From Saprospiraceae bacterium (GTDB lineage Bacteria > Bacteroidota > Bacteroidia > Chitinophagales > Saprospiraceae), in contig JADJXD010000005.1 of assembly GCA_016715985.1 (NCBI GenBank), positions 13,299 through 77,298 on the forward strand: a stretch of 64,000 nucleotides of DNA, written 5' to 3'. A program made the position numbers and the translations under genes. Of the stretch, positions 29,844 through 55,939 are shown in pieces. The number at the start of each line of letters is the position of its first letter. Within the stretch, counting starts at the first letter, position 1. The notes beneath the pieces are model-generated. The model was not told the origin of the DNA. It was given only the letters and a program-made list of their open reading frames with translations, and did not search any database.

Positions 29844-30869
29844 TTAGGAACGTGCATTGTGGGAAGAAATTAGGTTAACAATTTGGGTAAATTTTGCTCT
29901 CATTATTGATTCCAATTTGTTTTGCCCCTCTTTTTGAAAAGGGTTTAATTCGAGTAATTGAGCCGTTACGGATTTCATGCCTACCCTCTTATAAATCTTC
30001 TTACCCCGTGCCTTTGCCTTTAACTCCGCTTCTCTTTCTTCGGGGCTGCTTGCCTCAAAAGTGGATTCAAAAAAATAGGCGTTCTCAGGTATTGATCTTA
30101 ACTCAGCGATATAACCTTGAAACCAGCGTTCTATCCAGTTGGCAGTTTGCCAGTCCACATCCTGAAATTCCAAAATCTTATTCGATAGCCAAATCTTAAA
30201 CTCATCCTCATCAATTGGAATCTCATCGCAATGAAGCAGTAACACAACTTCGGAGACGTACTTGGTGAACAATAACGCTGCATCCTTATCTGTGCCCTTG
30301 TTGTCCTTGTCGCTTCCAAGCCACGTTTCGTAATTGTTGTTTACCTGTATCGCCTCAATGGCTTGCTTGTACGTTACACTCTTATGGATGACGGCCCCTG
30401 TGATCGGGTGCTTGTCAACTTGTGGCATCGTGTACTCCCTTTCCTTAAACGTGATCTTTTCAGGCATTGGGTTTTGGTCGGCCTGATTAATCACGTTGGT
30501 TAGGTAAATCCAAATGTCAACAAGGCTTTTTTCCAATTGCTTTTGGTTTATGCCCTTGACTTGCTTTCCCAACTGATCCAGTTTGTTGAAGAAATCCGAC
30601 TCCTCCATTTCTAAGAAGTTGACTCCCTTCAAATTTAGGATAGTGCTTAGGTCAATGTCAAATGTTCGGCTCAATGCTTTGGCGATCGTTAAAAGGAAAC
30701 CTGCCCGGCTCTTAAATAAATTATCCTCATGCTTCTTTAAGTATGAGATCACTTCCATTTGTCCGAAATCAAAATCAATCTTTTGACTCAGTTTAAACTC
30801 GGTCGGATTCTCAGGAAGCGAAAATTTTAGGTGTGTTCCATCTGTCCTTTCGAGAGCGACTACCAGCAT
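29844..30869 (-). CDS. hypothetical protein
   Basis: 341-aa ORF abutting the upstream ORF. Confidence 0.45.
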   Translation of the reverse strand: MLVVALERTDGTHLKFSLPENPTEFKLSQKIDFDFGQMEVISYLKKHEDNLFKSRAGFLLTIAKALSRTFDIDLSTILNLKGVNFLEMEESDFFNKLDQLGKQVKGINQKQLEKSLVDIWIYLTNVINQADQNPMPEKITFKEREYTMPQVDKHPITGAVIHKSVTYKQAIEAIQVNNNYETWLGSDKDNKGTDKDAALLFTKYVSEVVLLLHCDEIPIDEDEFKIWLSNKILEFQDVDWQTANWIERWFQGYIAELRSIPENAYFFESTFEASSPEEREAELKAKARGKKIYKRVGMKSVTAQLLELNPFQKEGQNKLESIMRAKFTQIVNLISSHNARS

Positions 30870-31382
30870 TTATTTTAAATTGTTGAAGGCTGCTTTCAAG
30901 TCCTCAAATATCTCCTCATAGGTTTTGCCTTTAGAGTCAATGCCAAGTCCTGCCAGTTTCTTCTTGAACTGTGCCGGGGTTTTAAAGTTGGCTTTGGCTT
31001 TGTCCAGTCCATCGGTTACAAGATCGAGTATCTCGCTTTCGTTGGATGGGGTTTTGATCTCATCCTCTGTCAGTACCATTGGCTCCGGGTCTGCTGCCTT
31101 TGGTTGCTCCTTAACAGGTTCTGCAACCTTCCTCACTGTTTTTTTTTCAAAGTCTTCCTTTGAAAATTCAGCATTCGGGGGCATTGTTTTGCCGGATGGT
31201 GCTGTGGTGTGAATGGTCTTTTTTAATTTAAAAGACTTCTCTCGCTCAAATGAACGGTTGTTTTGTTGCACCAATGCAAAAAGGCCCTGCAAAAGGCCCT
31301 GTGTTTCTCCATTGTATGCTGTTGTGTCGATTAGGTTGTCGATGGCTGTAATGAGTGCAACCTTTGTCTTAATGTCTGACAT
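30870..31382 (-). CDS. hypothetical protein
   Basis: 170-aa ORF downstream of the terminase genes. Confidence 0.45.
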   Translation of the reverse strand: MSDIKTKVALITAIDNLIDTTAYNGETQGLLQGLFALVQQNNRSFEREKSFKLKKTIHTTAPSGKTMPPNAEFSKEDFEKKTVRKVAEPVKEQPKAADPEPMVLTEDEIKTPSNESEILDLVTDGLDKAKANFKTPAQFKKKLAGLGIDSKGKTYEEIFEDLKAAFNNLK

Positions 31383-31462
31383 TGCTAAATCGGTTTTGGT
31401 TACTAAATAAAGACCTGTAAATATAATGTAATTTTCCTAATATGTACCGTATTTTAACATAT

Positions 31463-32722
31463 TTATGCAGTCCAAAATTTCCGCTTTTGGGTTTTAACCT
31501 TCCGTGGGTTCACTCCCTTATTCAAAACAGCATGCCTGTTAAAGTAAGTCATTGCATCTAAAATATGGTTATCCTTATCAATAGGAACGTTTTTATCAAA
31601 TAACCCTGCCCTGTTTTTGTAGATGTAATTTCCCAGCTCATAAATGAAATTCTTTGATCCCTGCACTACCTCTATGCCAAGCTGGTTGTTGAGTTCAATG
31701 CCCTGCTTTACTGATCCGGGTGGCTTGTCTGCCGGAATAATGTTCCAGCCTTTTTTTGCCAGCCAGTCAATAGCGTCAAGGTTTGAGCTATCCGCGATGA
31801 TCGGATCGCTTTTGCCGACTCCAAACTGCGGTAACATTTCATCCAGCGAATAGGCGTTTATCCCGGTTTCGTAAATGAGTTCCTGACCCACAAACTTTAA
31901 ACTTCCTTTCCTGTTGCCACATCGAAGTAACACCAAAGGATCATTTGCAAAACCCCAATCTATTGAATAGCCAAAATTTGACAAGTCCTTGATGTCAGGA
32001 AAACGGTCTATGACTGTCCATTCCTGATACACCATCCCCTCAACTATGCCTGTGAGTCCAAGTCCGTACACCCTCCATTTGTTCTCCCAATAACTTGAAC
32101 CGGTTTGCTTCCATTTATGCCAGTAACCCTTGATCTGTTGCCGGGTTTTTTCCGGACAAAATTCGTTATCCAAAAAAGTGGAAACGAAACCTTTTGCCCG
32201 TTTATCGCTTAAGACTTCCGTATGCACCCAAAATTTTGCTGTTGGGTTATAGTCGATGTATGTGCGCTTTTTTGTCCGTTGTTCAATTTCAAAATAAATC
32301 TCGTAGGGAATGCCGTTTGCCTCGTTAAAGAATGAGTAATCCCGTTTACCGTTCTTGGCATCCTGAGCCGAGTCAAAGGAAACAAACTCAATGAGCGATC
32401 CGTTTTTAAACTCGTATGGCCCTTCCTTAGCCTTTGGGTTGGTTAGAAAGAGTCTGAACGCTGGATTGTTCGCTATTAGATTTCGGAAGTCTCTGAGTGC
32501 CCCACGTTTCAAATTGGGCATATCCTGCCCAACGATGGTAATTTGACTGCCCGGTTCAAAGACCGCTATGCTTCCAAGTTCTTGAAGGATTGAAACTGTC
32601 TTACTGCTTGAAGTGCCGCCCTGTGCGACAATGATTTCGTATTCTCTTAAACTTCTTAAGATGTGGAAAACAGATGTAACTGTTTCCCATAAAACTAACC
32701 TGTCATAATTGGCCCCATTCAC
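31463..32722 (-). CDS. terminase large subunit
   Basis: Walker A-like AQGGTSSSKT, followed by FFNEANG, IDYNPT and DNHILDAMTY, as in PBSX/Terminase_3-type TerL. Confidence 0.8.
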   Translation of the reverse strand: MNGANYDRLVLWETVTSVFHILRSLREYEIIVAQGGTSSSKTVSILQELGSIAVFEPGSQITIVGQDMPNLKRGALRDFRNLIANNPAFRLFLTNPKAKEGPYEFKNGSLIEFVSFDSAQDAKNGKRDYSFFNEANGIPYEIYFEIEQRTKKRTYIDYNPTAKFWVHTEVLSDKRAKGFVSTFLDNEFCPEKTRQQIKGYWHKWKQTGSSYWENKWRVYGLGLTGIVEGMVYQEWTVIDRFPDIKDLSNFGYSIDWGFANDPLVLLRCGNRKGSLKFVGQELIYETGINAYSLDEMLPQFGVGKSDPIIADSSNLDAIDWLAKKGWNIIPADKPPGSVKQGIELNNQLGIEVVQGSKNFIYELGNYIYKNRAGLFDKNVPIDKDNHILDAMTYFNRHAVLNKGVNPRKVKTQKRKFWTA

Positions 32723-33216
32723 TCAATTGGTTTTATGGTTGGGGTGGATGATGGGAGCTGCTTTGTGGCCTCATAGATATTGCCATTCTTAGCCAGCTCT
32801 ATAAGTTCACCAGTTACGTTTATGTTTTGATTGGTTGGGGCGTTCCATCCGAAGAACTCGGCTGCTTGTTTGCCTGCCTGTAACTTATCCCTAAATGATG
32901 GATATTTGCCGTTGGTGTCAGGTTCGCCATCCCAAATTTGCTTTAACCCTGCGATGTAGTCCATTTGGGAAAATAGTTCGGCCATTCTTTCCCTCTCGGC
33001 TGGTCGTGTTTCCTTTCTGAATGCTTGGTCGTGGAGTTTGTCTATTTCAGTCCTAACAGCTTCGTAATGAGTGTCATAAGTCAGTTTGGCTAATTTTATA
33101 CCCTGTTCGGCTAATATCTTTCTTTGTCCTACTTTAGATTGATAGTCAGGGTTTGTTCTGTTATCATAAAGTATTCGGGCTAATTGCTTTATATCTATCT
33201 TGGTAGCGACTGCCAT
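32719..33216 (-). CDS. terminase small subunit candidate
   Basis: 165 aa with a 4-nt overlap with terL. It is the first gene behind a strong promoter-like box. Confidence 0.45.
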   Translation of the reverse strand: MAVATKIDIKQLARILYDNRTNPDYQSKVGQRKILAEQGIKLAKLTYDTHYEAVRTEIDKLHDQAFRKETRPAERERMAELFSQMDYIAGLKQIWDGEPDTNGKYPSFRDKLQAGKQAAEFFGWNAPTNQNINVTGELIELAKNGNIYEATKQLPSSTPTIKPIE

Positions 33217-33223
33217 ATTTTAG

Positions 33224-33252
33224 CAAATATACAATTTATTCTAATATGTTCC
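33224..33252 (-). promoter_or_regulatory. Bacteroidota-type promoter candidate
   Basis: Minus strand: GGAACATATTAGAATAAATTGTATATTTG. The TAnnTTTG -7 box ends 8 nt before the ATG. Confidence 0.5.
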
Positions 33253-33340
33253 ACGTGGAACGGTTATATTATTGGGGTAACTATATACTTATTCATCCTG
33301 AACCATATTTCTTCACTTCAAAGGCGATGTTGTTTTTTTT

Positions 33341-34186
33341 TTAAAACGCCTCACAACTCTCTGCACATCCGTCAATCTTCTCCCTTTTAGCCATCTTAAC
33401 TATCTCGTGTATCGGCATTGATGATAAAATCAAAATGTCTTTTGGTGAAAGATTACCACGGTAAAAGTTAAACGGTGGGTTTAAATCCGTATTTCGAGGA
33501 TTAAAATAACCATATTTATCAGTCATTGATTGCCACCACTCGAAAGATTTAGGGTTCCGTACCATATTCCTACACAATCTTAAAATATCTTTCTTCCAAC
33601 AATTTATGCAATTTCCTTCGTCTCCGTGTATATTTAAATCGAAATCTTGAGCACCCCACCACGAACTGATAAAACTTTTATCAACGGGATTCAAATCAAT
33701 CAAAGGATACAAGATTTTGTCTTTTTTGTGGCTTGCACTTTTCCTGCCCTCTTCGTCTTTTCTAATACCAATTGCAACATGATAACCTGCCCAACCAAGT
33801 TTTCTTGCAAATGCTTTAATTGTTCTTTGTTTCAATATTGTAGAACAGAACGGGGTATTTGTAGAAGGGATACCAACTTTTGAAATCATTTCTTCAAAAG
33901 GTTCCCCTTTCCGTGAAGCGGTGTTATAAGAAACAATTTTTGGGTTAACCCGCCACCCTTTTTCAGAACCAGCTCTATATTCCACCCAAAAAATAGGAAT
34001 GTTCCATTCAAGCGAACACTCATCTATGAAAAGCAAAGTGCCCTCTGCTTCCAATCCCGTATTTGCAAATACAACTTTTATGTCCCACTCTTGTCTTTCT
34101 TCCCACTCATTGAATAACCACCATAGCATATAAGCGGACGTTCTGCCTCCGCTAAATGAAACTAATAATTGTTTCTTTTTACTCAT
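33341..34186 (-). CDS. PP-loop ATP pyrophosphatase / PAPS-reductase-like protein
   Basis: [11 protein letters not shown] (a variant of the SGGxDS PP-loop), CxxC (NCINCW) and a C-terminal GCAESCEAF cysteine cluster. Confidence 0.65.
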
Positions 34187-34206
34187 TTCCCACCTTTTTA
34201 GTACTT

Positions 34207-34214
34207 CAAATATA
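34207..34214 (-). promoter_or_regulatory. -7 box TATATTTG inside the cassette
   Basis: Lies 20 nt upstream of the ATG at 34186. Confidence 0.4.
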
Positions 34215-34249
34215 AGTCATTTTCGCTTTAAAAACAAATATGTTTTGAT

Positions 34250-34981
34250 TTATTTTACCCTATATTTGTTAAATATTTTAACAGGATGAATAAGTATATA
34301 GTTACCATATTTTTTTCTTACATCTGCAATTGCTTTTTGTTCGTCTCCTTCGTGTCGAGCAAGGCAATTCCAATAAAGCTGTCCTGTTTCCCAATCTTCA
34401 ATCATCATATTACTCTCTTTTCCTTGATTGTCGATTATTTTAAACTTGAATTTGTAAGGTAGTTTCTGAACAACCTCAAATTTACCTTCTTGATTAGTTT
34501 CAAATAAATTGAGTTGGTTCAACTTAGCTAATTTGTCTTTGTCCCATTCTCTTTCAACTGGCTCTGCGTAGAAATCCAAAATCTCTGTTGGTTTAAATAC
34601 TGCCAATGATGTGCAAATATTTTTGTCCTTGGCTTCTGCTATCAATTCAGTTAGGTTGTAATAAATTTTCCCTAAGCAGATTTTCTTGCGTTCTTCCCAA
34701 TTACTTTTGGTGTCAATGTGTCCAACTACATTTATCTCTGTGTCAATACTTTTAGGTCGATAACTTTCAGGACGGAAATCGCTTGTGTTTTTTACCAAAT
34801 CAACTTCAATCCAATCATATTTTTTGTATTGTTCGTTATATGACTTTTTTCGGAACGGAACAGGGTAAAGACGTATCCAAGTCCCATCTTCACGAAACCC
34901 TGCTGTGCAAACCAATTCATCATATTTTGCCGAAAGTGTTGGATAAGTCTTTACAGTAATGAGAACTTTTGTTAGTGCCAT
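34250..34981 (-). CDS. uncharacterised 243-aa protein; its last 18 codons lie inside the inverted-repeat cassette
   Basis: Starts with MALTKVLITVKTYPTLSAKYDELVCTAGF. Its ATG lies 2 nt after the stop of the reconstructed DUF488 gene. The right inverted repeat encodes GNYILIHP. Confidence 0.5.
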   Translation of the reverse strand: MALTKVLITVKTYPTLSAKYDELVCTAGFREDGTWIRLYPVPFRKKSYNEQYKKYDWIEVDLVKNTSDFRPESYRPKSIDTEINVVGHIDTKSNWEERKKICLGKIYYNLTELIAEAKDKNICTSLAVFKPTEILDFYAEPVEREWDKDKLAKLNQLNLFETNQEGKFEVVQKLPYKFKFKIIDNQGKESNMMIEDWETGQLYWNCLARHEGDEQKAIADVRKKYGNYILIHPVKIFNKYRVK

Positions 34982-35114
34982 TTTTAAATATGTTTTACTT
35001 CATAGTCAAATGCAGGAAGTTTTTCTATGGCTTCTGCTAAATGTTTACGATGGCACTGGCAAATATTAGCTTCAAAACAAGTTAGGGCAATACGCTTGTG
35101 TTCTTTCAATAAAT

Positions 35115-35867
35115 CTAATATGTGTAATTGTGAATTGGTTGTTTTGGATAGATTGTTTTTACGGTAAATGGAAAAAGTTTATCGTAATCGCTTTGTGTAT
35201 TTAATTCTTGTCTTTGTTCTGATTGTATGCCAACTTCAGGAATATGAACATACTGTATGCCTAAGCTTCCGCAATATTTTTTTAACTGACTTTTGCTAAA
35301 GCCAAATTTCATACTTAATGGATTGTTCCGTACATCAACCAAAACTTTAACATCATTTTTAAGCAAACGAACCAAATATTCTTCCAACGAAATACCTTCA
35401 TAACCAATAGTAAAAAGCACGGTCTTATTTGCTCTTGGTTTGGACTTGTTTACTTTTTCCAACTCCTCTTTTGTTAAGATGTTTTCGGCAGCTTCACTCT
35501 TGATGGCGTAAAAAGGGAAATTCAAGTAAGTGTGTTTCATTAAAGCCGTTGCACTCAATTTGCCATAATGAGTTTTTACTTCCTGCAATAGTTTCAAGTC
35601 GGCAGGTTTTAGTTGTTTCAGGTAATCGGTTGAGTCTTTTTTTGTAAAGGACTTTTCATCTTCTGTTAAAAATCCTCTTGTTACCATTGCGGTCATATCT
35701 GCATTTGCAGAATAAGAGTAACAACCGAAGCGATAGGGAATAAAATCGTATTCACTTTTTACCTGTCTTTGGGTAAAAAAGAAAAGTAGTTTCTGTAAAC
35801 GAATTTTATCTAATTGTCCGTCAAACAGTTGCAGTATTGCGAGTATTATTTTTCTTCGGTAAAACAC
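35115..35867 (-). CDS. winged-helix (YwgA/Panacea-like) N-domain fused to a DUF488 domain; 3' end frameshifted
   Basis: DUF488-like TIGYEG.SLEEY...DVRNNP.S.KFGFSK. The conserved C-terminus (RIALTCFEANICQCHRKHLAEAI..) reads in another frame down to the stop at 34984-34986. The switch is at the A5 run at 35172-35176. Confidence 0.55.
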   Translation of the reverse strand: MFYRRKIILAILQLFDGQLDKIRLQKLLFFFTQRQVKSEYDFIPYRFGCYSYSANADMTAMVTRGFLTEDEKSFTKKDSTDYLKQLKPADLKLLQEVKTHYGKLSATALMKHTYLNFPFYAIKSEAAENILTKEELEKVNKSKPRANKTVLFTIGYEGISLEEYLVRLLKNDVKVLVDVRNNPLSMKFGFSKSQLKKYCGSLGIQYVHIPEVGIQSEQRQELNTQSDYDKLFPFTVKTIYPKQPIHNYTY

Positions 35868-35961
35868 TGTGCAAAGTTAAGAATATTAAATTATTGATTG
35901 TATTTAATTGAGCTTTTTCCTTTAACCTAAAATTGTTAATAGCGGACTTGTTTATTTTCCT

Positions 35962-36792
35962 TTAAACATTTCGCTTATTAAATATCCAATTAGTAAACGC
36001 CCCTACTGCCAAAGCGGCATTAACAATTTCATCTGTATTCGATTTATTTCCGTTGGCTAAATACTCATTATACTGATTTTGAGAAATTTTTCCATTTCTG
36101 TATAAGATAAGCATATACTCGTCTTTTTCTTGCTTTGTGGCAAGTCCTGCTCTAAGTCTGTCACCTAAGTAGGAAAGTCTTTGAAAGTCTAATAGGTTCT
36201 TTTGTGAAAAGTATGTTGGTCGTGGCTCTGCAGCAATGGCTAAATCTTCTTGTTTTACTTCAATTGTTTTTGGCTGCAATGCTTCTTTTAATGCCGTTTG
36301 GTAAAGCAAGGTTGTATATTCCTGATTGACTTTTACGCTTGTTTCCAATTCATCACACAAATTCATTAATTCCTCTATTTTGGAAACTATGCGTTTTTGT
36401 TCTGATAATGGTGGAAATGCAATGAAAAATTCGACTAAATCTCTTTGATATAAATGGGGTGTTGTTGCCCCCATAATTCTAGAATTAACTATTTTCTGAA
36501 AATGCTCGCTTAATAAATAATAATAAAGGAATTTTAATTGAACTTGCTTTGATGGTCGAATTAGAAGTAAAGATGAGTTTATTGTAGCGGGCTCCTGCAA
36601 ATCTTTAATTATTCCAAGTTTTCCTATACCCGCACCATCCTTACATATCAAAATATCACCATTTCTAAGCATTATCTCAGGACTCTCGTCATATCTCTCT
36701 TTTGAAATATGATAAGCCTGTGAATAATCAACGTAATCTCCATAGTTAAGTGAATAAACGGATAAAAAAGTGGGCCATTTTTTTGTATTCAC
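35962..36792 (-). CDS. hsdS: Type I R-M specificity subunit HsdS, C-terminal fragment
   Basis: Conserved region LSEQKRIVSKIEELMNLCDELE. Joins the upstream fragment if the T7 run (36778-36784) is shortened by one base. Confidence 0.8.
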   Translation of the reverse strand: MNTKKWPTFLSVYSLNYGDYVDYSQAYHISKERYDESPEIMLRNGDILICKDGAGIGKLGIIKDLQEPATINSSLLLIRPSKQVQLKFLYYYLLSEHFQKIVNSRIMGATTPHLYQRDLVEFFIAFPPLSEQKRIVSKIEELMNLCDELETSVKVNQEYTTLLYQTALKEALQPKTIEVKQEDLAIAAEPRPTYFSQKNLLDFQRLSYLGDRLRAGLATKQEKDEYMLILYRNGKISQNQYNEYLANGNKSNTDEIVNAALAVGAFTNWIFNKRNV

Positions 36793-37474
36793 TTGCTGTC
36801 AGTCCTTTCCAACCAATTCTACCATTCAATTCTGCAATTTCTCCAAGTCTGCACCAAGACCAGTTTGAAGGAGTTTTAAATGGAACATCAGCCAAATTTA
36901 TTTTGGGTAATGCTTTCTCTTTTTTGCCTGATTTTGCCTTCTCTACTTTTATCTTTTCAAGAAGTTTTGATGCTGGTTCGTCTTTTGGGTTTTGGGGAAC
37001 TAATTTACCTTGCATTGCATCTTTCAAAATCTGCTGTCGCAGTTTTTTGATTAACTCTAACTGGTGTGATTGTTCATTTATTAATTCATCCTTATATGAA
37101 TTACCCACTATGAACTTTGATTTAACTTCAAGTTGTTGTTTAATGTCAAAATATGGCAGACGATAATTTCCAAAAGACTTTAATCCAATTGCTTCTTTTG
37201 ATGTTCCTGCTTTAGTGTTTCTTACAATATCATCTTTCAAAACATTGAAAATAATATGATAAAATTGCAAGTCAATTGGATATTTCTCTTCATTCTTTGG
37301 GGTAAGAATAAAGCACAAATCGCTTGATATAAACTTGCCATTTACATAATGCGTTCTGCCTAATGAACCTGATGCAGCAGCAGCAAAAATTAATGCTTCA
37401 CAGTCATATACATATTCATTATGAGTTTTCCATTCAGAAGAAGCTGTAATGAAAGTGTATTTCCTGGTATGCAC
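36746..37474 (-). CDS. hsdS: Type I R-M specificity subunit HsdS, N-terminal and central fragment
   Basis: FITASSEWKTHNEY..ASGSLGRTHYVNGKFISSDLCFIL is a known TRD type. The true ATG at 37535 overlaps the hsdM stop and is out of frame by 1 nt near 37460-37462. Confidence 0.8.
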   Translation of the reverse strand: MHTRKYTFITASSEWKTHNEYVYDCEALIFAAAASGSLGRTHYVNGKFISSDLCFILTPKNEEKYPIDLQFYHIIFNVLKDDIVRNTKAGTSKEAIGLKSFGNYRLPYFDIKQQLEVKSKFIVGNSYKDELINEQSHQLELIKKLRQQILKDAMQGKLVPQNPKDEPASKLLEKIKVEKAKSGKKEKALPKINLADVPFKTPSNWSWCRLGEIAELNGRIGWKGLTASEYKKMAHFFIRLFT

Positions 37475-37532
37475 TTAGAACTTTGTAAAGTCCCTTTTTC
37501 AAACTGAAATAAATCTGATATTGGAACCAAAC

Positions 37533-38054
37533 TCATTTAACCGCCTGTTTTAATTGGTTCAACAAGTTATTGCTTTTAGCAAAACTCTTATCTAAAAGTT
37601 GCATCAATTCCTGTGTGTTGTTTTCGTGTTCTTCCTCTTGTTTGGTGGGGTTCTTAATATCCAAATCATAATTACGCTCAATAATGGTTTTGATATTTAC
37701 TTTCCAAGCTACCTCACTTTCTTTGCGTTTGTTCCACCATTTTTTAATCGGTTCAAGCTCTTTTATTTGAATTGGTTTAGTTTTGCTATATGCCTTTTGT
37801 CCTACAGGTAAACGATGTTCATAATACCAAATGTCTTTAGTAGATTTTCCTTTTTCAAAAAACAATAAGTTGGTTGCAACCGTTGCATAAGGTTGAAAAA
37901 CTGAATTTGGCAACCTAATAATCGTGTGTAGATTGCAATCTTTTAATAATTTCTCCCTAATTCTTTGTTTTACACCTTCACCTGTTAAACTCCCATCAGG
38001 TAAAACAATTCCTGCTCGTCCTTCATTTTTCAAAAGATGAATCATCAAAATCAA
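37533..38054 (-). CDS. hsdM: Type I R-M methyltransferase HsdM, C-terminal fragment
   Basis: LKNEGRAGIVLPDGSL.GEGV...IREKLL..CNLHTIIRLP. In frame with the upstream fragment if one base is added to the A4 run at 38053-38056. Confidence 0.85.
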   Translation of the reverse strand: MILMIHLLKNEGRAGIVLPDGSLTGEGVKQRIREKLLKDCNLHTIIRLPNSVFQPYATVATNLLFFEKGKSTKDIWYYEHRLPVGQKAYSKTKPIQIKELEPIKKWWNKRKESEVAWKVNIKTIIERNYDLDIKNPTKQEEEHENNTQELMQLLDKSFAKSNNLLNQLKQAVK

Positions 38055-38956
38055 AAGAGGTCTGCACTTTCTTTAGTTCGGAAGCTTTGAGGAAAATTGT
38101 TTTCGTTGTTATTGGCTACTATTCCCCCAAATGGCGGATTTGCCAATATTACATTTACACGGTGCTTCTCAGTAAAGTTGCTCAAAGGTTGGTCTAAAGC
38201 ATCACCAAATCGAATATTCGGCACTTCAATATCGTGCAAAATCAAATTGGTAGTTGCCAACAAATAGGGAAGTGGTTTATACTCCCAACCAATAATATTT
38301 TCTTCAATGGATTTTCTTTCTTTAACTGAATTAGCTTGCTTCTTCAAGTGTTCAATGGCACAAGTCAAGTAGCCACCCGTGCCGCAGGCAGGGTCCAATA
38401 TTTTCTCGCCAATTTGGGGGTTGATAATATCGGTAATGAATTGTGTAATGGCTCGTGGCGTGTAGAACTCTCCACTTTTACCTGCACTTTGCAATTCTTT
38501 TAATATATTTTCGTAAAGCTCACCAAAAGAATGGCGGTCTTTGGCAACATTAAAATCTAGCTCATTTAACTTGTTCAATACCTTTCGGATATTGATTCCG
38601 CTTTTCATATAGTTGTGATTGCCCTCAAAAACCTCACGAACAATTAAAGCCCTTCGGTTTCCCGTGCTTACATCCACATTTCTCAATGCAGGAAACAGTT
38701 CTCGGTCAACGAACTCTAACAATTCATCACCTGTCATTCCTTCATCATCACCTGCCCAAGCATCCCAATGAAATTTTGAAGGAATCGGAGATTTGTATTT
38801 GTCATCTAAGATTTCAAGTTCCTTGTCTTTGTCTGAAAATATTTTTAAAAATAGCATCCACCCCAATTGTTCAATGCGTTGTGCATCACCGTTCAATCCG
38901 GTGTCCTGCCACATTATTTTTCTTATGCTATCTATTATGCCTGATATATTTCCCAT
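38051..38956 (-). CDS. hsdM: Type I R-M methyltransferase HsdM, N-terminal fragment
   Basis: GEFYTPR, DPACGTGGYL and NPPFGG motifs. Confidence 0.9.
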   Translation of the reverse strand: MGNISGIIDSIRKIMWQDTGLNGDAQRIEQLGWMLFLKIFSDKDKELEILDDKYKSPIPSKFHWDAWAGDDEGMTGDELLEFVDRELFPALRNVDVSTGNRRALIVREVFEGNHNYMKSGINIRKVLNKLNELDFNVAKDRHSFGELYENILKELQSAGKSGEFYTPRAITQFITDIINPQIGEKILDPACGTGGYLTCAIEHLKKQANSVKERKSIEENIIGWEYKPLPYLLATTNLILHDIEVPNIRFGDALDQPLSNFTEKHRVNVILANPPFGGIVANNNENNFPQSFRTKESADLF

Positions 38957-38963
38957 TTATCTG

Positions 38964-39329
38964 TTACGCTATTTTATACAGTTCTTTTTCTAATTCTTTC
39001 ACGGCTTCAAGGTATTTTTCCTTGCTGCCAAACTCATTGATAATTTCGATCGGTGAACCGAAATCAGTAAGCGGCTTTACTTTTAAAACTTCAATGCTTT
39101 CAATGTTTGTAATGCCTTCGTCTGCATACTTGTCAAGTAGGGTTTCTAAAACTTTTACACCGGGAAAGCATTTCTTAACCCGTTGGATGTGGTTGTATCT
39201 GTCCTCGGGTTCCCCGCAAATTAAAACTCTGTCAATTTGTGGATGTCCTTTTACTTCACATGGGATGCACTCGGTTTTATGGCATCCGAAAGCGGAGAGG
39301 ATTAAAAAACAAATCAATAGCTTTTTCAT
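38964..39329 (-). CDS. chimeric ORF: lipoprotein-like signal peptide fused to an HsdR C-terminal-domain remnant
   Basis: N-terminus MKKLLICFLILSAFGC. The C-terminus VLETLLDKYADEGI..IE..VLKVKP...FGSP.EII.EFGSKEKYLEAVKELEKELY resembles the EcoEI-type HsdR C-terminal domain. No helicase or nuclease part is present. Confidence 0.5.
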   Translation of the reverse strand: MKKLLICFLILSAFGCHKTECIPCEVKGHPQIDRVLICGEPEDRYNHIQRVKKCFPGVKVLETLLDKYADEGITNIESIEVLKVKPLTDFGSPIEIINEFGSKEKYLEAVKELEKELYKIA

Positions 39330-39339
39330 GTTTTACTTT

Positions 39340-39669
39340 TTAAAAAGGCATTTCATCATCATGGGTTACTTTGATTGGTTGCATTTGGTTTTGACCTTGT
39401 GTTTTTTTGTAGTTCGGATCAGGAACAAAATCATCCACCTTTACCGAGTGGGTTCTGTATTCCGTTTGGTTTTCCGGTTTAAGTGGAAAAATTACAAGGT
39501 CAATGCTTTTGTGTTCGTTTCCGTTTTTGTCCTTCCATGTTTTGATCTTGTCCTTTGCCTGTCCTTTGGTAAACTCCCAAAGAGCTGTTAAGTCAATTTG
39601 CAATTTGATTCCGTTGTTTCCAATTGTTCGGCCATTGCCGACATACATTTCTTTTTTTTCAGTACTCAT
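39340..39669 (-). CDS. single-stranded DNA-binding protein candidate
   Basis: 109 aa ending in the acidic tip HDDEMPF (SSB consensus DDD.PF). Adjacent to the replication module. Confidence 0.5.
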   Translation of the reverse strand: MSTEKKEMYVGNGRTIGNNGIKLQIDLTALWEFTKGQAKDKIKTWKDKNGNEHKSIDLVIFPLKPENQTEYRTHSVKVDDFVPDPNYKKTQGQNQMQPIKVTHDDEMPF

Positions 39670-39670
39670 T

Positions 39671-39793
39671 TTATTGAATTAGTTTAGTGATTGCGTTTGT
39701 TACCATAATTGAAAATCCAATTACCACGATGTACAAAATGATCCCTTGAATTTTTCCGGGTTGTGAATCGTCGTGTTCGTATCTATTTTTCAT
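39671..39793 (-). CDS. 40-aa single-TM peptide (not in the ORF track)
   Basis: ATG at 39793 and stop 1 nt before the SSB ATG. Hydrophobic core IILYIVVIGFSIMV. Confidence 0.3.
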   Translation of the reverse strand: MKNRYEHDDSQPGKIQGIILYIVVIGFSIMVTNAITKLIQ

Positions 39794-39872
39794 TGCTTTT
39801 AAAATTGTGGGGCAGCCTCAAACCGCCCCGAAGTTTTGGTTATTAATTTGCTTTTGCCATTTTTTACTTTTC

Positions 39873-39908
39873 AAAAACCAGCCGGGCAAATGAATAAATC
39901 CCGGCTGG
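39873..39908 (-). terminator. rho-independent terminator downstream of the tRNA
   Basis: Minus strand: CCAGCCGGG-N13-CCCGGCUGG (9-bp stem) followed by U5. Confidence 0.7.
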
Positions 39909-39935
39909 AACTCATCAAAATTCAAAACAAATGTG

Positions 39936-40008
39936 TGGCAGGGGCAGGACTCGAACCTGCGCACATCCGGTTATGAGCCGGACAATCTACCAACTGATAT
40001 ACCCTGCT
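39936..40008 (-). tRNA. tRNA with CAU anticodon (Met, or Ile2 if lysidine-modified)
   Basis: The cloverleaf folds by hand. It has U8, A14, G18G19, A21, an anticodon stem UCCGG/CCGGA with loop CUCAUAA, and a T arm GCAGG-UUCGAGU-CCUGC. There is an A1.C72 mismatch and no encoded CCA. Confidence 0.8.
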
Positions 40009-40067
40009 ATAAAACTCCCTACTTTAAGGGAGTGAAACACTTACTAAAACCTGAGCTTATGCATATA

Positions 40068-40096
40068 CAAATATAATTTAATTTTTCTAATTTGTT
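40068..40096 (-). promoter_or_regulatory. promoter candidate driving the tRNA
   Basis: Minus strand: AACAAATTAGAAAAATTAAATTATATTTG, with the -7 box about 60 nt upstream of the tRNA 5' end. Confidence 0.45.
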
Positions 40097-40110
40097 TCTG
40101 CCAAAAAGTG

Positions 40111-40326
40111 TTAAATGCTGCACTTTTTTTCAACACATTCAATCTTTATGCTTCCTATCCGCTTGGCCATTAAGTTGATCCCGGCCTTGATATACATCTT
40201 GGTTTCAGGACTCATTTCCCTTTCGACTTCAATTTCTAAACAAAGTTCCTTTCTTAGTTCTTCTATTTGATTTTCCATTTGGTTCAATTTATTTGCTTGT
40301 TTATTCTTGTTTTTGCTTGCATTCAA
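40111..40326 (-). CDS. small coiled-coil protein, unknown function
   Basis: 71-aa ORF flanked by a 14-bp direct repeat (40045-40058 and 40331-40344). Confidence 0.4.
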   Translation of the reverse strand: MNASKNKNKQANKLNQMENQIEELRKELCLEIEVEREMSPETKMYIKAGINLMAKRIGSIKIECVEKKCSI

Positions 40327-40397
40327 CTTTTAAAACCTGAGCTTTCCCATCGTTATGGGAGTAATTCAGGTAATTCTGATGTAAGGCTTAAAATACC

Positions 40398-41213
40398 CTA
40401 CACATACGTGTTTCTTTTGCTCTTTCCATAAATTTCAACAACGTGGAACATTTCTTTGAATCGGTCAATACTCCGGCCATCCATGTATGAAAACAGGGTC
40501 AATGGTTTAGATTCATCATCCAGCACAATGTTTGAACTTATGAACGTGAACAACCCTTTTGATTTCCATAGTTCGTATCGGTTTTGGATGATCTCATTCA
40601 TTGAGTATTTATAGTCTCCATAATGCGAGACTTGGTTTATCTTCTCGGTCATGTCATCCAAAAACAAATGACTTTCATTGGCATAAGTTAGGTCAACTTC
40701 GTGGCCGTTGATCTTCTTTGAAATGTCCCTTGTCATGGATGACCACAGGACTATGCCGGGGTTTTTGATAACGTTAAACGAAATGTGCGCTGATTGAATC
40801 GCTGCCCGTAAAAGCGTTGTTTTACCTATTCCGGGGCTTGACCAAAAATAAAGGCCGCCTTTGCCATTTAATGTTTCGTTGGGTAGGTCAAAAATGAAGT
40901 CGATAATTAGTTTACAAGCATCCGCATAGGATTGATCCTGTTTGATTTGCTCGGCTATCTCTGCCCCTGATTTCCCGATAACCGAAACTAAGTACTTCCA
41001 AAAAACTTGTTTTGCCTCGCTTTCCATGTACATTTTTTTGACTGGATGATCCGGCATTGAATTTACCTTTTCCCAATATTCTTTGGATTTTTCGGTTACC
41101 GGAAGCGGTGCGAATTGCTCCTCGGTGCGCTTTCTCCACTTAGCATTGTAGGCATCAATTTGAGCCTGGGTTACTTGGGCGGAGACTTGTACGGTCGTTT
41201 GGTCGGTTGTCAT
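40398..41213 (-). CDS. AAA+ ATPase, DnaC/IstB-like helicase loader candidate
   Basis: Walker A SSPGIGKTT and Walker B HLFLDDMTE. Overlaps the upstream replication-associated ORF. Confidence 0.55.
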   Translation of the reverse strand: MTTDQTTVQVSAQVTQAQIDAYNAKWRKRTEEQFAPLPVTEKSKEYWEKVNSMPDHPVKKMYMESEAKQVFWKYLVSVIGKSGAEIAEQIKQDQSYADACKLIIDFIFDLPNETLNGKGGLYFWSSPGIGKTTLLRAAIQSAHISFNVIKNPGIVLWSSMTRDISKKINGHEVDLTYANESHLFLDDMTEKINQVSHYGDYKYSMNEIIQNRYELWKSKGLFTFISSNIVLDDESKPLTLFSYMDGRSIDRFKEMFHVVEIYGKSKRNTYV

Positions 41214-41464
41214 GCCTGTGCTGTTTTTGGGATCATTCCTAATCTTTCCATTCCTTTGCGGTTATGTTCGTCTGCGATATCCAAGACCCCGGAGTTAATT
41301 CGTAAGTGGTCTTGGCTGGTTCCGTTTTGGAACTTGCCTGTTTTTTTGTCGGTAAGGTTTCGCATAATCCAGCCACGTGCTGATGCTTTCCAATCCTTCA
41401 TTTTGTTTTTGCCGACTTTCCATCCGTTGGATTCGTAGAAAGCGAAAAATCTTCCAGCTTCCAT
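41210..41464 (-). CDS. C-terminal part of a replisome-organiser/DnaD-like protein
   Basis: The motif FYESNGWKVGKNKMKDWKASARGW is common at the C-terminus of phage replication organisers. The frame stays open upstream to about 41550 (..KPTENETIKFFKNQNSTE) with no ATG. Confidence 0.45.
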   Translation of the reverse strand: MEAGRFFAFYESNGWKVGKNKMKDWKASARGWIMRNLTDKKTGKFQNGTSQDHLRINSGVLDIADEHNRKGMERLGMIPKTAQA

Positions 41465-41570
41465 TTCGGTCGAGTTTTGATTTTTGAAAAATTTAATGGT
41501 TTCGTTTTCCGTTGGTTTTTGAAAATTTTTTCCTCTCTTAATTCTTTTATCATTTTCATATTCAATTACA

Positions 41571-41596
41571 TTTTCTTATCTTTTCTTATCCTTATC
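41571..41596. repeat. short tandem repeat TTTTCTTATC x2.6 (iteron-like)
   Basis: Read directly from the sequence. Lies in the ORF-poor 41465-42213 region next to the replication genes. Confidence 0.5.
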
Positions 41597-42173
41597 TTAG
41601 TGTTTGCTCCATCTTCTTTTTGAGTGTTTGTTTGAGCCAAATTGTTATAAATGTTGTTTATTTTATAGCATTTTTCAAGCCTTTTTTCGTTTTCGCCTAA
41701 ATTTTCAAAATTACAATGCACTTATCATTCTTTTGCAAAAGTTCATCCGCATGGAATGCAAATAACACCCTCGGCAAAAACCAATTTCGATGATTCTAGG
41801 GTAAACATCCACTGGCATATTCTTGCACTTTAAATTAAAATTTTAATTGGTTGCCTTTTGTGGTCATTTGCTTTACAAATTGAGGTAAACATGACCTGGT
41901 TTATGCCTCAAAATTAAGTCTGATTGCATTTAGCTATTGCGAACATTCAAGCAATTTTTTCGTTTGGCATGTCAAAAAATCCTTCGGCCAAATTTCGGCG
42001 TATGGATAAACCTCTTAGCCATTGTTAATAAAAAAAGCCACCCACAAGGACATCGAGGAAGCCTGCAAAACAGAGGCATCATGCGGCCTTTTGTTTCCGA
42101 TTGAATGGCCTCAGAATGGCTTTATTTAAAAAATTCGTTTGTTCTATTATCACAGTGATGTATTTTGGCACTA

Positions 42174-42203
42174 CAAATATATATTTATTTCTAATATATT
42201 CAC
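42174..42203 (-). promoter_or_regulatory. promoter candidate firing into the ORF-poor region
   Basis: Minus strand: GTGAATATATTAGAAATAAATATATATTTG, with a TAnnTTTG -7 box. Confidence 0.45.
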
Positions 42204-42213
42204 CTTTTATGTT

Positions 42214-42450
42214 TTAAAAAGTTTTTAACATTTTTTTTCGACTATTTTCGAGCCTTGCCCGGCCTCTGGACAGCACCCAGTCTGACATCTTTATGCACTT
42301 TGTGGGGCAGTATTTCTTCCGGCCTTTGGGATGATCTGAGCGCAAACCGAATTGATCTGCATACTTTTTAAAGGTGTTTATTGACACCCCCACCAAGTTG
42401 GATGCATCGGCCAATGTCAAAGGTTCGGTTAATAGTTTTGCAAGGGTCAT
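42214..42450 (-). CDS. small HTH-like DNA-binding protein
   Basis: 78 aa. The segment LTLADASNLVGVSINTFKKYADQFGL resembles a helix-turn-helix. Confidence 0.4.
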   Translation of the reverse strand: MTLAKLLTEPLTLADASNLVGVSINTFKKYADQFGLRSDHPKGRKKYCPTKCIKMSDWVLSRGRARLENSRKKMLKTF

Positions 42451-42875
42451 TTAGCTTTTATTATTCTGAGTTCTGCGCCCGGATCAATTTCGTTAATAAG
42501 TGCGGTTAATAGCTTCCATTTTATTTGCCATAACGGCAATTCTAAGCCCTTGACTTCGATATAAATTCGCTGTCCGTGTTTGTCGGTTGCGATAAAATCA
42601 ATGTAGTAATTGGCAATAAATACGCCATTGACCCTCAAAGGAATTTTAACTTGCCTTTCCCATTTTAATATATCTCCTGACTTAATTTGCCAGTCTAAAT
42701 CTTGAGCGACTTTTGCTTCAAGTTTGGAATCGTATTTCTTCTCTCCATATTCAGTTGAAACATTTTTATACTTCGATTTTGTTCTAAATGCTTTTAATCC
42801 CATTTGTCTATAAGATGATGCCGGAACCTTTGTAGCTCCTTCAATTGGTTTTAGCTTTGGGTCTGGTTTAAACAT
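42447..42875 (-). CDS. DUF1064-like PD-(D/E)XK nuclease (phage resolvase-like)
   Basis: YDSKLEAKVAQDL...YYIDFIATDKHGQRIYIEVKG matches the DUF1064 pattern (YDSK.E, D..EVKG). Confidence 0.55.
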   Translation of the reverse strand: MFKPDPKLKPIEGATKVPASSYRQMGLKAFRTKSKYKNVSTEYGEKKYDSKLEAKVAQDLDWQIKSGDILKWERQVKIPLRVNGVFIANYYIDFIATDKHGQRIYIEVKGLELPLWQIKWKLLTALINEIDPGAELRIIKAK

Positions 42876-43011
42876 TCGTTATTGTTTTATAAAATATTGC
42901 GTATGTTTTTATCGCTAATTAAATCCATTTGGTGGGATAAACGATAGTTTGTAGCGTGTATAAATGAGTTATAGGCAATAGGGCAGACGTTCTTCGTTTC
43001 AACATTTGTGG

Positions 43012-43043: not shown

Positions 43044-43898
43044 TTAAAATAATTCATTTTTATTCTGTTTACTTACCCAAATATCATTTAGCCTTTTTAC
43101 TGCTATATCATAAATCGGTTTATCTTTTTCAATTCCTATGCAATATCTATCAGTATTTATACAAGCTGCCGCAGTTGTTCCGCTTCCTATGCAATTATCT
43201 AATACCAATTCGCCCTTATTGGTATAAGTTTTTATTAGAGTTTCTATTAATAATATTGGTTTTTGTGTTGGATGTCCTAAATACTCTCTTGATATTGGTC
43301 TAATGGAATTGCATTTAATTACAGAAGATGGATTTTTTTCATCAGGAGAATACCTTTGTGCTTCAATATCTTTATAAGCAACGGATTGTTGATTCCCCGA
43401 CATTGTATTAGAAACATTAAACTTGCCACCATTTTTTATCATACTACTTACTGTTTTATCTGTTCTTGGTATCATTTGTTTATTATATGTTGGCTGTGAT
43501 TTATAAAAAACGATAATGTTTTCGTGATACTTCATTGGTCTTTTATTTGATTGCCCCATTCCTGTCGGGTTTGATTTCTCCCATATTAATTCGTACTTAA
43601 ACAAATTGATGTTACTCATAATTAAAGCACTTGTAAAAGGCTGTGAACCAAATAAAACTATTGCGCCATTTTGTTTAATTAACTTGTCGTATCGTTCCCA
43701 TAGTTTCTCAAAAGGAATTATAGTGTCCCATTTACAAGCGGTAGTCCCGTATGGTAAATCGCAAAGTATCATATCTACTTTTGTATTATCTTCAATCATC
43801 AAGTCCATTACTTCTAAGCAATCACCGTGATATAGTTGCAACTTTTCGCCACAGTAAACTGAATAGTCCAACCAAGTTTTATTATTAAAATTTTCCAT
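43044..43898 (-). CDS. DNA methyltransferase (beta-class N6-adenine / N4-cytosine)
   Basis: Motif IV CDLPYG near the N-terminus and motif I LDNCIGSGTT near the C-terminus. Confidence 0.8.
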   Translation of the reverse strand: MENFNNKTWLDYSVYCGEKLQLYHGDCLEVMDLMIEDNTKVDMILCDLPYGTTACKWDTIIPFEKLWERYDKLIKQNGAIVLFGSQPFTSALIMSNINLFKYELIWEKSNPTGMGQSNKRPMKYHENIIVFYKSQPTYNKQMIPRTDKTVSSMIKNGGKFNVSNTMSGNQQSVAYKDIEAQRYSPDEKNPSSVIKCNSIRPISREYLGHPTQKPILLIETLIKTYTNKGELVLDNCIGSGTTAAACINTDRYCIGIEKDKPIYDIAVKRLNDIWVSKQNKNELF

Positions 43899-44068: not shown

Positions 44069-44734
44069 CTACTGACCTGCTTCGATTAAACATTGTGAAT
44101 GAAAAGTTTTTAAAATTTCCCCAGCCCGCTTTTGTTTTTTCAAAACAATAAAGTATGAATGAAACTTCCTTGCGTGGTGTTGGTTGCTGTGGTTGTGTCC
44201 AATTATCCTGTTTTTAGCAAGCAAGATGAAAAGGTCTTTGTTGTAAAAACCAATCCTTTCAGCCTCATTCATAATGTATATATGTGAAAACCATTGTTTT
44301 CCACTACTTACAGTATCTTGGCATTTAATTATCAGCGTTCCATTTGGCTCAAGTATTCTATAAAACTCTTCCAAACATTCTGAATACCATTTCCAAAGGT
44401 CTTGTATATACCTAAATCCGTGAAACCTTTCGCCAATAATGCCAGAAGGCTTTTGTTTTGTATGTCCTACCACGAATGGCGGGTCAAACATTATTGATGA
44501 AATGCTATTGTCCAAGTGTGGTAAATCATTTGCGTTTGCCTGTAAAGTATCGTCTGTTTGCGGAAACAAATCAAACTTTTCTAAAGGCTCATCAATGCCA
44601 GCTTTGTTGTAAAAATTACCCTTAGAATATGTCGGGTCTAATTCAATGCCTTGTGGGCAATGAAGTTTTACTATGTCACGTATAATTTCGTGTTGGTCAT
44701 AGTTTATTGTTGATATTACTTTTCCTTCGCTCAT
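44069..44734 (-). CDS. DNA methyltransferase (DPPF motif)
   Basis: The SIMFDPPF catalytic motif and ELDPTYSKG. 221 aa. Confidence 0.65.
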   Translation of the reverse strand: MSEGKVISTINYDQHEIIRDIVKLHCPQGIELDPTYSKGNFYNKAGIDEPLEKFDLFPQTDDTLQANANDLPHLDNSISSIMFDPPFVVGHTKQKPSGIIGERFHGFRYIQDLWKWYSECLEEFYRILEPNGTLIIKCQDTVSSGKQWFSHIYIMNEAERIGFYNKDLFILLAKNRIIGHNHSNQHHARKFHSYFIVLKKQKRAGEILKTFHSQCLIEAGQ

Positions 44735-55061: not shown

Positions 55062-55064
55062 TAC

Positions 55065-55505
55065 TTAAATTTTTAACCAAACGAACGCAAACAAATCGGG
55101 ATGAATGACCGGGTTACGGCCCCTGTTCTCGAATCTGCACATTTCGTTTATTATTAAATAGATTTCCTCTCGCTTCCATCTGATAACCTGTCGTGATCTC
55201 ATGCCCGTGCCAATTGAAACGGCCTCATAATATGGCTGTAACTCCGTGCCGGGTCGTGCATATTTATTTATTAACTTCTCTATTGTATTGGCCTTGTCTA
55301 AGTGGATGTAATTGCATACCGTTGCCAGCATTGCATGAATGCCGTTATGGTAAAAGTCGAATGACTCATAAACCTTTTGGCCCGACTTTGTGGTCTTTCC
55401 TGTCCATGCCATTTTTGAAATATAGATACCTCCCGGATTATTGAGTTTCATTAGCCGGGTGGCATTGGGGTAATTTTCAAATGTTATCAATTCGGGTGTG
55501 GTCAT
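55065..55505 (-). CDS. phage late protein of unknown function (copy 2)
   Basis: 146 aa, differing at 1 residue from 605-1045. Confidence 0.5.
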   Translation of the reverse strand: MTTPELITFENYPNATRLMKLNNPGGIYISKMAWTGKTTKSGQKVYESFDFYHNGIHAMLATVCNYIHLDKANTIEKLINKYARPGTELQPYYEAVSIGTGMRSRQVIRWKREEIYLIINEMCRFENRGRNPVIHPDLFAFVWLKI

Positions 55506-55939
55506 AAAGTCCTGTAACCGAGTAGCCTTGATTTTTTGAAATCTGCAATTGAAACACTATCCATTGAATTGCCGGATAGCAATTTTACCGTGTCGAGATT
55601 TTCGTTTATGTAAAGTCCTATGTGTCCTTTTCCGGGGCCTCTTTCCAAAATGCACAAATCCCCAAGTTTGGGATGATCTGTTTTAGTTCCGACCTCTAAG
55701 AATTTACGAGCTGCAACAATATGTAATTTATTGCTGGGCCAAATGCCGGACTCGATTAAAATATTTGAAACGAAACATCCACACCATGCGAACTGTGAAT
55801 CGTCTTCCGGGCGTGAAATTTTGAGGGAATCGCATGAGGCGAATATCCACGCCTTTACTGTTTCATCCCAGCCAATTGGATTTTCTTTTGTGCCGAGATA
55901 TTTTATCCCGGTGAGAAATAGCTTTTCAGAATTATTCAT
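55502..55939 (-). CDS. NlpC/P60-like (TIGR02594-like) cell-wall peptidase, endolysin candidate (copy 2)
   Basis: Same motifs as copy 1, with a few substitutions. Confidence 0.6.
   Translation of the reverse strand: MNNSEKLFLTGIKYLGTKENPIGWDETVKAWIFASCDSLKISRPEDDSQFAWCGCFVSNILIESGIWPSNKLHIVAARKFLEVGTKTDHPKLGDLCILERGPGKGHIGLYINENLDTVKLLSGNSMDSVSIADFKKSRLLGYRTL

Follow-up and report, generated by a model that had tools for sequence, protein, structure and literature searches.

Orphan DNA methyltransferases encoded by phages are a well-known anti-restriction device (review PMC12707154). Methylase cargo stolen from a host and carried by a phage is a kind already known, and cargo derived from Type I restriction-modification systems is rare: HsdM-like matches are found in 51 of 50,697 phage records (about 0.1%), of which 11 cover at least 80% of the query. 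The locus described here consists of hsdM, hsdS and the very end of hsdR, followed by the remnants of a candidate defence gene pair. It lies in a phage genome within a stretch of 64,000 nucleotides, called the window below, of contig JADJXD010000005.1 from a Saprospiraceae bacterium (assembly GCA_016715985.1). An earlier account made from the letters of the window alone, the sequence-only reading, had taken positions 33341-39329 for a single captured Type I island without a restriction subunit. The host-derived part is the block 39156-34307, which is on the minus strand and 4.85 kb long. Comparison with related loci strongly supports its being a fragment of a Bacteroidota chromosomal defence island, captured by the phage. 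Positions 33341-39329 are not one unit; they comprise this host fragment, a separate phage PP-loop cassette and a 173-nt piece (39157-39329), and the latter two lie outside the fragment. The captured block contains the following features.

38964-39156, minus strand: 3' remnant of hsdR, left border of the block (Pfam EcoEI_R_C, tblastn, homology break at 39156)
37533-38956, minus strand: hsdM, 474 codons after one T is restored (HsdM_N and N6_Mtase)
36192-37536, minus strand: core of hsdS with two target-recognition domains and two conserved regions (Methylase_S, PADLOC Specificity_I)
35962-36191, minus strand: o84-derived tail fused in frame to hsdS (alignment to the donor-type locus L011, 12797/13662)
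34984-35867, minus strand: PDC-M19A, N-terminal domain and DUF488, 294 codons, frameshifted (PADLOC PDLC04505, Pfam DUF488)
34307-34981, minus strand: PDC-M19B, residues 1-225 of about 270, right border of the block (PADLOC PDLC04508)

Donor-type loci

Homology to the donor-type loci ends abruptly at 39156 and at 34307. With the 301-aa piece of HsdM as the query, many intact proteins of 474 aa are found at 96-100% identity, and the contigs of these relatives (L011-L020 and L024-L026) are bacterial. They encode hsdR (799 aa), hsdM (474 aa) and hsdS (661-666 aa), and most of them also encode two small open reading frames (ORFs), o82 and o84. The order of the donor operon, as found in L011 and L012, is hsdR-hsdM-hsdS-o82-o84 followed by PDC-M19A/B, which are a 294-aa DUF488 gene and a 270-aa gene, and then by Mrr and other defence genes. 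The order hsdR-hsdM-(hsdS)-M19A-M19B recurs in five GTDB genomes, in one of which (L105) hsdS is undetected. The donor HsdR belongs to the EcoAI/FtnUII family, that is, to Type IB (NCBIfam NF046051, 1183 bits).

The segment 39156-37530 is 93.2% identical in nucleotide sequence to L011 with one indel, and the segment 36191-34307 is 97.2% identical with two indel sites, three bases in all. Because donor-type loci with an intact hsdR match the block at 93-97% identity in bacterial contigs, the block is interpreted as captured host DNA. This origin had been offered in the sequence-only reading as one of several, and the sharp breaks at both ends speak for it as well. The donor locus with an intact hsdR, for which that reading had proposed a search, has thus been found: a 799-aa hsdR lies directly upstream of the same hsdM in bacterial contigs, with PDC-M19 downstream. 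The AT-richness that had been noticed by eye is real, too. The island has a guanine-plus-cytosine (GC) content of 34.5%, against 39.9% in the rest of the window and 41.4% in the structural genes; the early region is also AT-rich (37.0%). The lowest-GC stretches of 4.85 kb are those that overlap the island, which is the most AT-rich stretch of the window.

The HsdR remnant

The ORF 39329-38964 (121 aa, with its own ATG) had been read from end to end as an HsdR remnant. It is a chimera, whose first part is not homologous to the donor loci.

39157-39329, minus strand: first 57 codons of the chimeric ORF, opening with what resembles a lipoprotein signal, MKKLLICFLILSAFGC

The chimeric ORF ends in Pfam EcoEI_R_C (expect value, E, 9.5e-12) and is aligned with positions 738-803 of 807 of the PADLOC profile REase_I. 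The HsdR-derived part is confined to residues 59-121 (39155-38967), which are 98.4% identical in tblastn to donor residues 737-799 of 799; of the 799 codons of hsdR only the last 63 were kept. The 57 codons that precede them are unrelated; they encode a Cys-rich stretch of 57 aa with a lipoprotein-type signal at its start. This N-terminus has no match in Pfam and no tblastn match in the 50,697 phage records, and 39157-39329 may be the remnant of a gene of the recipient phage that was hit by the host fragment.

The search for HsdR covered the 64-kb window, a length greater than that of one phage unit; the other 33 kb of the contig lie outside it. A tblastn search of the window with the donor HsdR finds nothing beyond residues 737-799, and no ResIII, DEAD, HSDR_N, helicase or nuclease domain is present in the other large ORFs of the window. 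Since more than one full phage unit holds no other HsdR or helicase, the island cannot restrict DNA, and in this the sequence-only reading is borne out.

hsdM, hsdS and the o84 tail

As assembled, hsdM consists of two ORFs, one of 301 aa (38956-38051) and one of 173 aa (38054-37533), and the HsdM_N and N6_Mtase domains span both pieces. The motifs DPACGTGG and NPPFGG are present in the translation, and P0001, a protein assembled independently, agrees with the repaired HsdM in all 474 aa (100% identity). The two pieces of hsdS (37474-36746 and 36792-35962) are both matched by Methylase_S and PADLOC Specificity_I. After repair by one added base at each run, HsdS contains no in-frame stops; over 428 aa it is 69% identical to, and colinear with, HsdS proteins that are intact at 430 aa, including both target-recognition domains; these domains differ from those of L011. 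The two genes are therefore located where they had been placed, at 37533-38956 and 35962-37535, but their frames are broken and the end of the 'hsdS' ORF is not hsdS.

The last third of that ORF (36191-35962) is the fused small gene o84. The window lacks 865 bp that in L011 lie between two copies of TAGACTT; the junction is at 36191-36185. Through this deletion hsdS continues in frame into o84 at codon 8, and the C-terminal extension of the donor HsdS, all of o82 and the start of o84 are lost; judged from the alignment, it is a microhomology deletion. The C-terminus of o84 lies in another frame, and a 2-nt deletion near 35998 alters the last 14 codons of the tail. As assembled, hsdM and hsdS carry four frameshifts, each of them the loss of one base from a homopolymer in coding sequence that is otherwise perfectly conserved. 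Methylation by the module, the other half of what the sequence-only reading had claimed for it, would depend on whether these frameshifts are real.

The donor HsdS is unusually long (661-666 aa), and its C-terminal extension of ~190 aa (L011 12832-13407) is weakly similar to the C-terminal region of the antitoxin DarG (NCBIfam, E 9e-7). The N-terminal domain of M19A (35867-35600) weakly matches the same region of DarG (PADLOC, E 6e-4) and also SocA_Panacea (E 0.24). From these matches, the HsdS extension and the M19A N-terminus may share a domain.

The PDC-M19 pair

The wHTH-DUF488 gene and the 243-aa ORF of the sequence-only reading match the PADLOC candidate pair PDC-M19A/B. M19A matches PDLC04505 with E 1.2e-103 for residues 1-240 and, in another frame, with E 2e-22 for its 64-aa tail; its assembled ORF (35867-35115) bears DUF488. 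The gene is 97% identical in nucleotide sequence to that of L011, with T5 in place of T6. M19B matches positions 1-228 of 269 of PDLC04508 (E 9e-111) and is 99.6% identical in amino acid sequence to residues 1-225 of the L011 protein, after which the ORF continues for 18 unrelated codons to 34250. Homology to the M19B of the window ends at residue 225-227 in 77 of the 80 genomic matches. The part that is lost holds the conserved C-terminal block FLGTT...NPF.IIG, which forms the last two strands of a high-confidence M19B model. The truncation of M19B is structural and cannot be a base-calling error, and the M19 pair of the phage is, from its sequence, dead.

In all 80 species-level genomes with the pair (L035-L114, mostly Bacteroidota), as in the window, M19A is directly upstream of M19B. 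Since an HsdM-like gene is found within 10 kb of the pair in only 8 of the 80, PDC-M19 is an independent two-gene pair which is sometimes located beside this Type I operon. The M19B family contains 1,934 clusters at E < 0.001. A model of one member (P0363) has a mean pLDDT of 93, and its best Foldseek matches are the tandem OB-fold DNA binders RPA, CST, Teb1 and HIN-200, with E down to 7e-7 and low TM-scores. M19B is thus predicted, at high confidence, to consist of tandem OB folds, and the model suggests that it could be a DNA-binding sensor partnered with the DUF488 protein. In a literature search PDC-M19 was found in no paper, and the papers on DUF488 held nothing relevant to defence.

The phage genome and its cargo slot

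The window encodes a large terminase (TerL), a tape-measure protein, a head-maturation protease and a portal, and is thus a phage genome; genes for a DnaC-like loader, a Holliday-junction resolvase and an exonuclease are also present. All long ORFs are on the minus strand. Positions 1-4582 align to 54461-59044 at 97.9% identity, with 92 mismatches and 4 single-base indels. The phage unit is ~54.46 kb, the window is slightly longer than one unit, and the source contig (97,444 nt) consists of about 1.8 tandem units, two non-identical phage copies being joined head to tail. Past 4582/59044 a large tail-fibre-like gene is strongly divergent between the copies, with 85% identity in patches and lengths of 2176 aa and at least 2048 aa.

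Among isolated phages, those of Parabacteroides and Phocaeicola have the nearest TerL, at 37% identity. In IMG/VR no relative is close (best TerL identity 38%), and a megablast search of 30000-43000 against the 50,697 phage records gave no match. This is a poorly sampled lineage, probably one of Bacteroidota phages. The early region contains two further orphan DNA methyltransferase genes, at 44069-44734 and 43044-43898, which match phrog_24333 (E 5e-56) and phrog_67 plus PADLOC MTase_II (E about 1e-71 to 1e-76), respectively; no nuclease gene was recognised beside either of them.

The captured block and the PP-loop cassette lie between two flanks, which are shared with the only syntenic relative found, L027 (JRYJ01000123.1).

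39340-39669, minus strand: upstream flank, 109-aa SSB-like gene ending in DDEMPF (62.5% identical homologue at the same position in L027)
33276-34306, minus strand: PP-loop/PAPS-reductase-like cassette, gene at 34186-33341 (phrog_424, E 3.6e-44)
31463-33216, minus strand: downstream flank, small terminase-like gene (33216-32719) and large terminase gene (32722-31463) (phrog_2; L027)

The phage SSB gene that had been named as a flank is SSB-like, with the acidic C-terminal tip DDEMPF; the label itself is unconfirmed, as the gene has no match in Pfam, PHROGs, NCBIfam or PDB sequences. TerL matches phrog_2 (E 2.4e-19), and the terS-like gene matches an ORF of L027 that bears Pfam Terminase_2. L027 is 68% identical in TerL, 62.5% in the SSB-like protein and 33-59% in the genes of the capsid region.

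Between the same flanks, the slot of L027 (465-7912) encodes, in this order, a C5 methylase, an IS1595-family transposase, an N6/N4 methylase, an MvaI/BcnI restriction enzyme of which 127 aa are left (positions 4-90 of the 227 in the profile), and another N6/N4 methylase. The two slots are alike in that methylases are kept and the nuclease is truncated. They differ in content: the slot of L027 has Type II-like methylases of the C5 and N6/N4 types and an IS1595 transposase, without Type I, M19 or PP-loop genes. The same outcome, a methylase kept and a nuclease truncated, is thus seen twice, yet two phages are an anecdote.

The PP-loop gene had been counted as part of the captured island. It lies beyond the border at 34307 and is a phage gene in a cassette of its own; the homology borders rule out that it belongs to the host fragment. 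A perfect 25-nt inverted repeat, GGTAACTATATACTTATTCATCCTG, brackets it at 34306-34282 and 33276-33300 and defines a cassette of 1,031 bp in which it is the sole gene. The repeat occurs twice in the window, against 0 copies expected by chance, and the outer end of one arm abuts the border of the host fragment at 34307 to the base. The cassette has these terminal inverted repeats and neither a transposase inside nor a visible flanking target-site duplication, and no further copies of it were found in IMG/VR or in 116 fetched loci. Homologues of the PP-loop protein are at most 72% identical, and many are encoded on phage-sized contigs of about 50-63 kb; in the two contexts examined the gene is situated among early phage genes and not beside Type I genes. 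The homologue contigs L021-L023 have too little synteny to show an empty site. In L021 a weaker inverted repeat of 19 nt (5483-5501 / 6505-6523) is present at a similar spacing.

Six small deletions

The frames of the island are interrupted at six places. All six lesions are deletions, and five of them lie purely in homopolymer runs.

38056-38053: 1-nt deletion in hsdM, T4 against T5 in intact relatives
37462-37460: 1-nt deletion in hsdS, in an A-run
36784-36778: 1-nt deletion in hsdS, in A7
36769-36764: 1-nt deletion in hsdS, in T6
near 35998: 2-nt deletion in the o84 tail
35176-35172: 1-nt deletion in M19A, in a T-run, T6 to T5

Neither hsdM, with one 1-nt deletion, nor hsdS, with three, has an uninterrupted frame as assembled. 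The substitutions in the island bear the mark of strong purifying selection: the ratio of nonsynonymous to synonymous substitution rates (dN/dS) relative to L011 is 0.033 for hsdM, 0.02 for o84, 0.13 for M19A and 0.02 for M19B. The changes assigned to the lineage of the window in M19A and M19B are 12 synonymous and 4 nonsynonymous. Because dN/dS is only 0.02-0.13 and the repaired HsdM is identical to P0001, the six deletions are, on balance, probably artefacts or very recent; true decay of the sequence is a considerable possibility that falls short of an even chance.

The two phage copies also differ from each other by single-base indels, at 1600, 1951, 2365 and 3905 (in copy 2 at 56061, 56411, 56826 and 58367). 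At least two of these four interrupt or shorten a reading frame of the shorter copy; at 3905 the tail-fibre gene of copy 1 is split into ORFs of 2176 and 249 aa, a frame that is continuous in copy 2. The indels point to errors in the local consensus or to a copy that is defective.

A uniform rate of sequencing error is excluded by the statistics of clustering of the lesions, and an artefact would need locally poor read support, as would be the case if most phages of the population lacked the island. Phase variation or programmed frameshifting is implausible, with six separate sites in four genes and runs of only 3-7 nt.

Capture of the fragment and alternative explanations

The explanation preferred here, which is given an even chance of being right, is that the island is captured methylase cargo: a host fragment with a selected HsdM2-HsdS1 payload, whose breaks are errors or very recent. 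Illegitimate recombination would have pasted the 4.85-kb host fragment into a variable cargo slot of a tailed phage of ~54.5 kb, with the SSB-like gene on one side and the PP-loop and terminase genes on the other. The cut points left hsdR with no more than its last 63 codons and M19B without its last 45; only hsdM and hsdS were taken over whole, and the later 865-bp microhomology deletion trimmed the C-terminal extension of HsdS. Presumably the payload under selection, and the one part able to function, would be the HsdM2-HsdS1 methyltransferase. Progeny phage DNA would be methylated by it at the bipartite site that its HsdS specifies, and the methylated phage would survive on entering hosts with the cognate Type I enzyme. 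The stub of hsdR and what remains of M19 would be debris. The six deletions of 1-2 nt would be either private mutations of very recent date or consensus errors where a long-read assembly had little local support.

Unmodified DNA is a comparatively good substrate for Type IB methylases, and for this reason the phage copy could pre-methylate progeny DNA. The two further orphan methylases fit a strategy of self-protection, the role that the sequence-only reading had put forward. That role gains indirect support from them and from the slot of L027 with its three methylases and truncated restriction enzyme.

Several observations weigh against captured, working cargo. As assembled, hsdM, hsdS and M19A cannot be translated in full. 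M19B is dead and the ends of the fragment are random, as accidental capture predicts. No independent phage copy of the island was found, and the HsdS-o84 fusion is present only in the window's own contig; this absence of a second copy in a phage context counts against the cargo as well. Exact-sequence look-ups of the SSB-like protein, of the fusion protein (P0121) and of P0001 gave no record. The lesions are clustered: six are found in 4.85 kb with 141 homopolymer runs of at least 4 nt, against none in four long ORFs of structural genes with about 21 kb and 414 such runs. The backbone genes, early and structural, which are colinear with L027 or match profile models end to end, have no such lesions either. 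The clustered lesions therefore fit relaxed selection on dispensable cargo.

On these observations rests the strongest rival, according to which the island is dead cargo in decay, captured by accident and broken by real slippage and by larger deletions, so that it neither methylates nor restricts. The truncations of hsdR and M19B and the 865-bp internal deletion are certainly real, and hsdS has three lesions, which is beyond what its inactivation needs and is what neutral accumulation predicts. Decay at the level of substitutions, however, is absent. Besides the low dN/dS and the 4 nonsynonymous changes, HsdM has 0 residue differences in 474 from P0001, and no in-frame stops are left after the frames are repaired. 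All six lesions, moreover, are deletions. The ratio of indels to substitutions in bacterial pseudogenes is about 0.1-0.2, and six indels with so few substitutions would need a ratio well above this. Decay is a quite credible explanation, held at less than an even chance.

A bolder form of the cargo explanation, which is doubtful, is that the slot is a recurrent capture site, in which host restriction-modification loci are stripped of their nuclease. The product would here be a working two-subunit Type IB methyltransferase whose HsdS, being host-derived, provides an epigenetic camouflage matched to the strain; the frameshifts would be assembly errors, and the end of the 25-bp repeat beside the fragment would be a recombination-active site at which capture or trimming takes place.

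The island might also be absent from the phage, with host DNA misjoined into the phage contig by the assembler. The contig is odd in consisting of about 1.8 tandem units that agree at only 97.9% where they overlap, and public metagenomes contain host loci with 93-97% identity to the island. Both junctions, however, lie inside genes, and no repeat is common to the phage and host sequences. The fragment is also unlike all host loci seen, having the 865-bp deletion, a unique HsdS-o84 fusion and different target-recognition domains. Its orientation is that of all phage genes, and the slot is variable cargo in L027 as well. Such a chimera is very improbable.

Least likely of all is interference between subunits, in which the HsdR stub or the HsdM/HsdS of the phage would bind Type I subunits of the host and block assembly of the active nuclease: the C-terminal region of HsdR takes part in docking to the methylase core, and the stub holds its conserved last 63 residues at 98% identity in an intact 121-aa ORF with its own ATG, but the stub is fused to a lipoprotein-type signal which would export it, shows no sign of selection apart from hsdM, and is most simply read as the arbitrary end of the captured piece.

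Other features of the window

The window contains one tRNA gene, a tRNA-Met. Between 41722 and 42213 there are 492 nt without a minus-strand ORF of at least 45 aa, upstream of short ORFs and of the DnaC-like gene. Only weak short repeats, none of them notable, are present in this gap, which is a possible regulatory region or origin. A scan for sigma-70 promoters and terminators, which does not cover Bacteroidota promoters, gave results at chance level.

Significance and comparison with known systems

The island is a clean, datable case of a phage that has lifted part of a host defence island, with both cut points, the gene order of the donor and the internal trimming deletion all visible. If its methylase and specificity genes are active, it would be among the few phage-borne Type I methylases and would be a natural case of a phage copying its host's own specificity subunit. 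The frameshifts, which decide between a functional and a decaying island, are untrustworthy without read-level evidence. The side results may outlast the main finding: the strict pairing of M19A and M19B, the predicted OB folds of M19B, and the PP-loop cassette flanked by inverted repeats.

Compared with the EcoAI/EcoEI family (Type IB), the island has the same order hsdR-hsdM-hsdS, the HsdM_N and N6_Mtase domains of HsdM, and an HsdS with two target-recognition domains. It differs in that 63 of 799 HsdR codons are left, without the nuclease and the SF2 helicase motor, that hsdM and hsdS are interrupted as assembled, and that it is located in a phage genome. Its HsdS lacks the ~190-aa C-terminal extension of the EcoAI/EcoEI-type donor and is fused to a small downstream ORF. 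Compared with PADLOC PDC-M19, the order A then B is kept, while M19A is frameshifted and M19B is without its conserved C-terminal strands.

Two other phages carry comparable genes. A Mycoplasma prophage (MW353166) has hsdM and hsdS as cargo, and no R gene is annotated in the examined stretch. A Lachnospiraceae phage (PV036455) has the R-M-S order of the donor and EcoEI_R_C in its HsdR, which, unlike that of the window, is kept in full. Their HsdM proteins are 28-46% identical to that of the window, and neither has PDC-M19 remnants; with an identity of only 28-46% they are independent acquisitions. The complete Type I system of the latter phage (L115, PV036455.1 3467-11320) is preceded by a 760-aa AAA_13 ATPase, and all four genes are annotated as hypothetical.

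Like the orphan methyltransferases of phages, the island is a methylase without its partner nuclease, and other orphan methylases are encoded by the same phage. By analogy, pre-methylation of the exported DNA would be common to both. Most phage orphan methyltransferases, however, are single-subunit and Type II-like, whereas that of the window needs two subunits and has a bipartite site.

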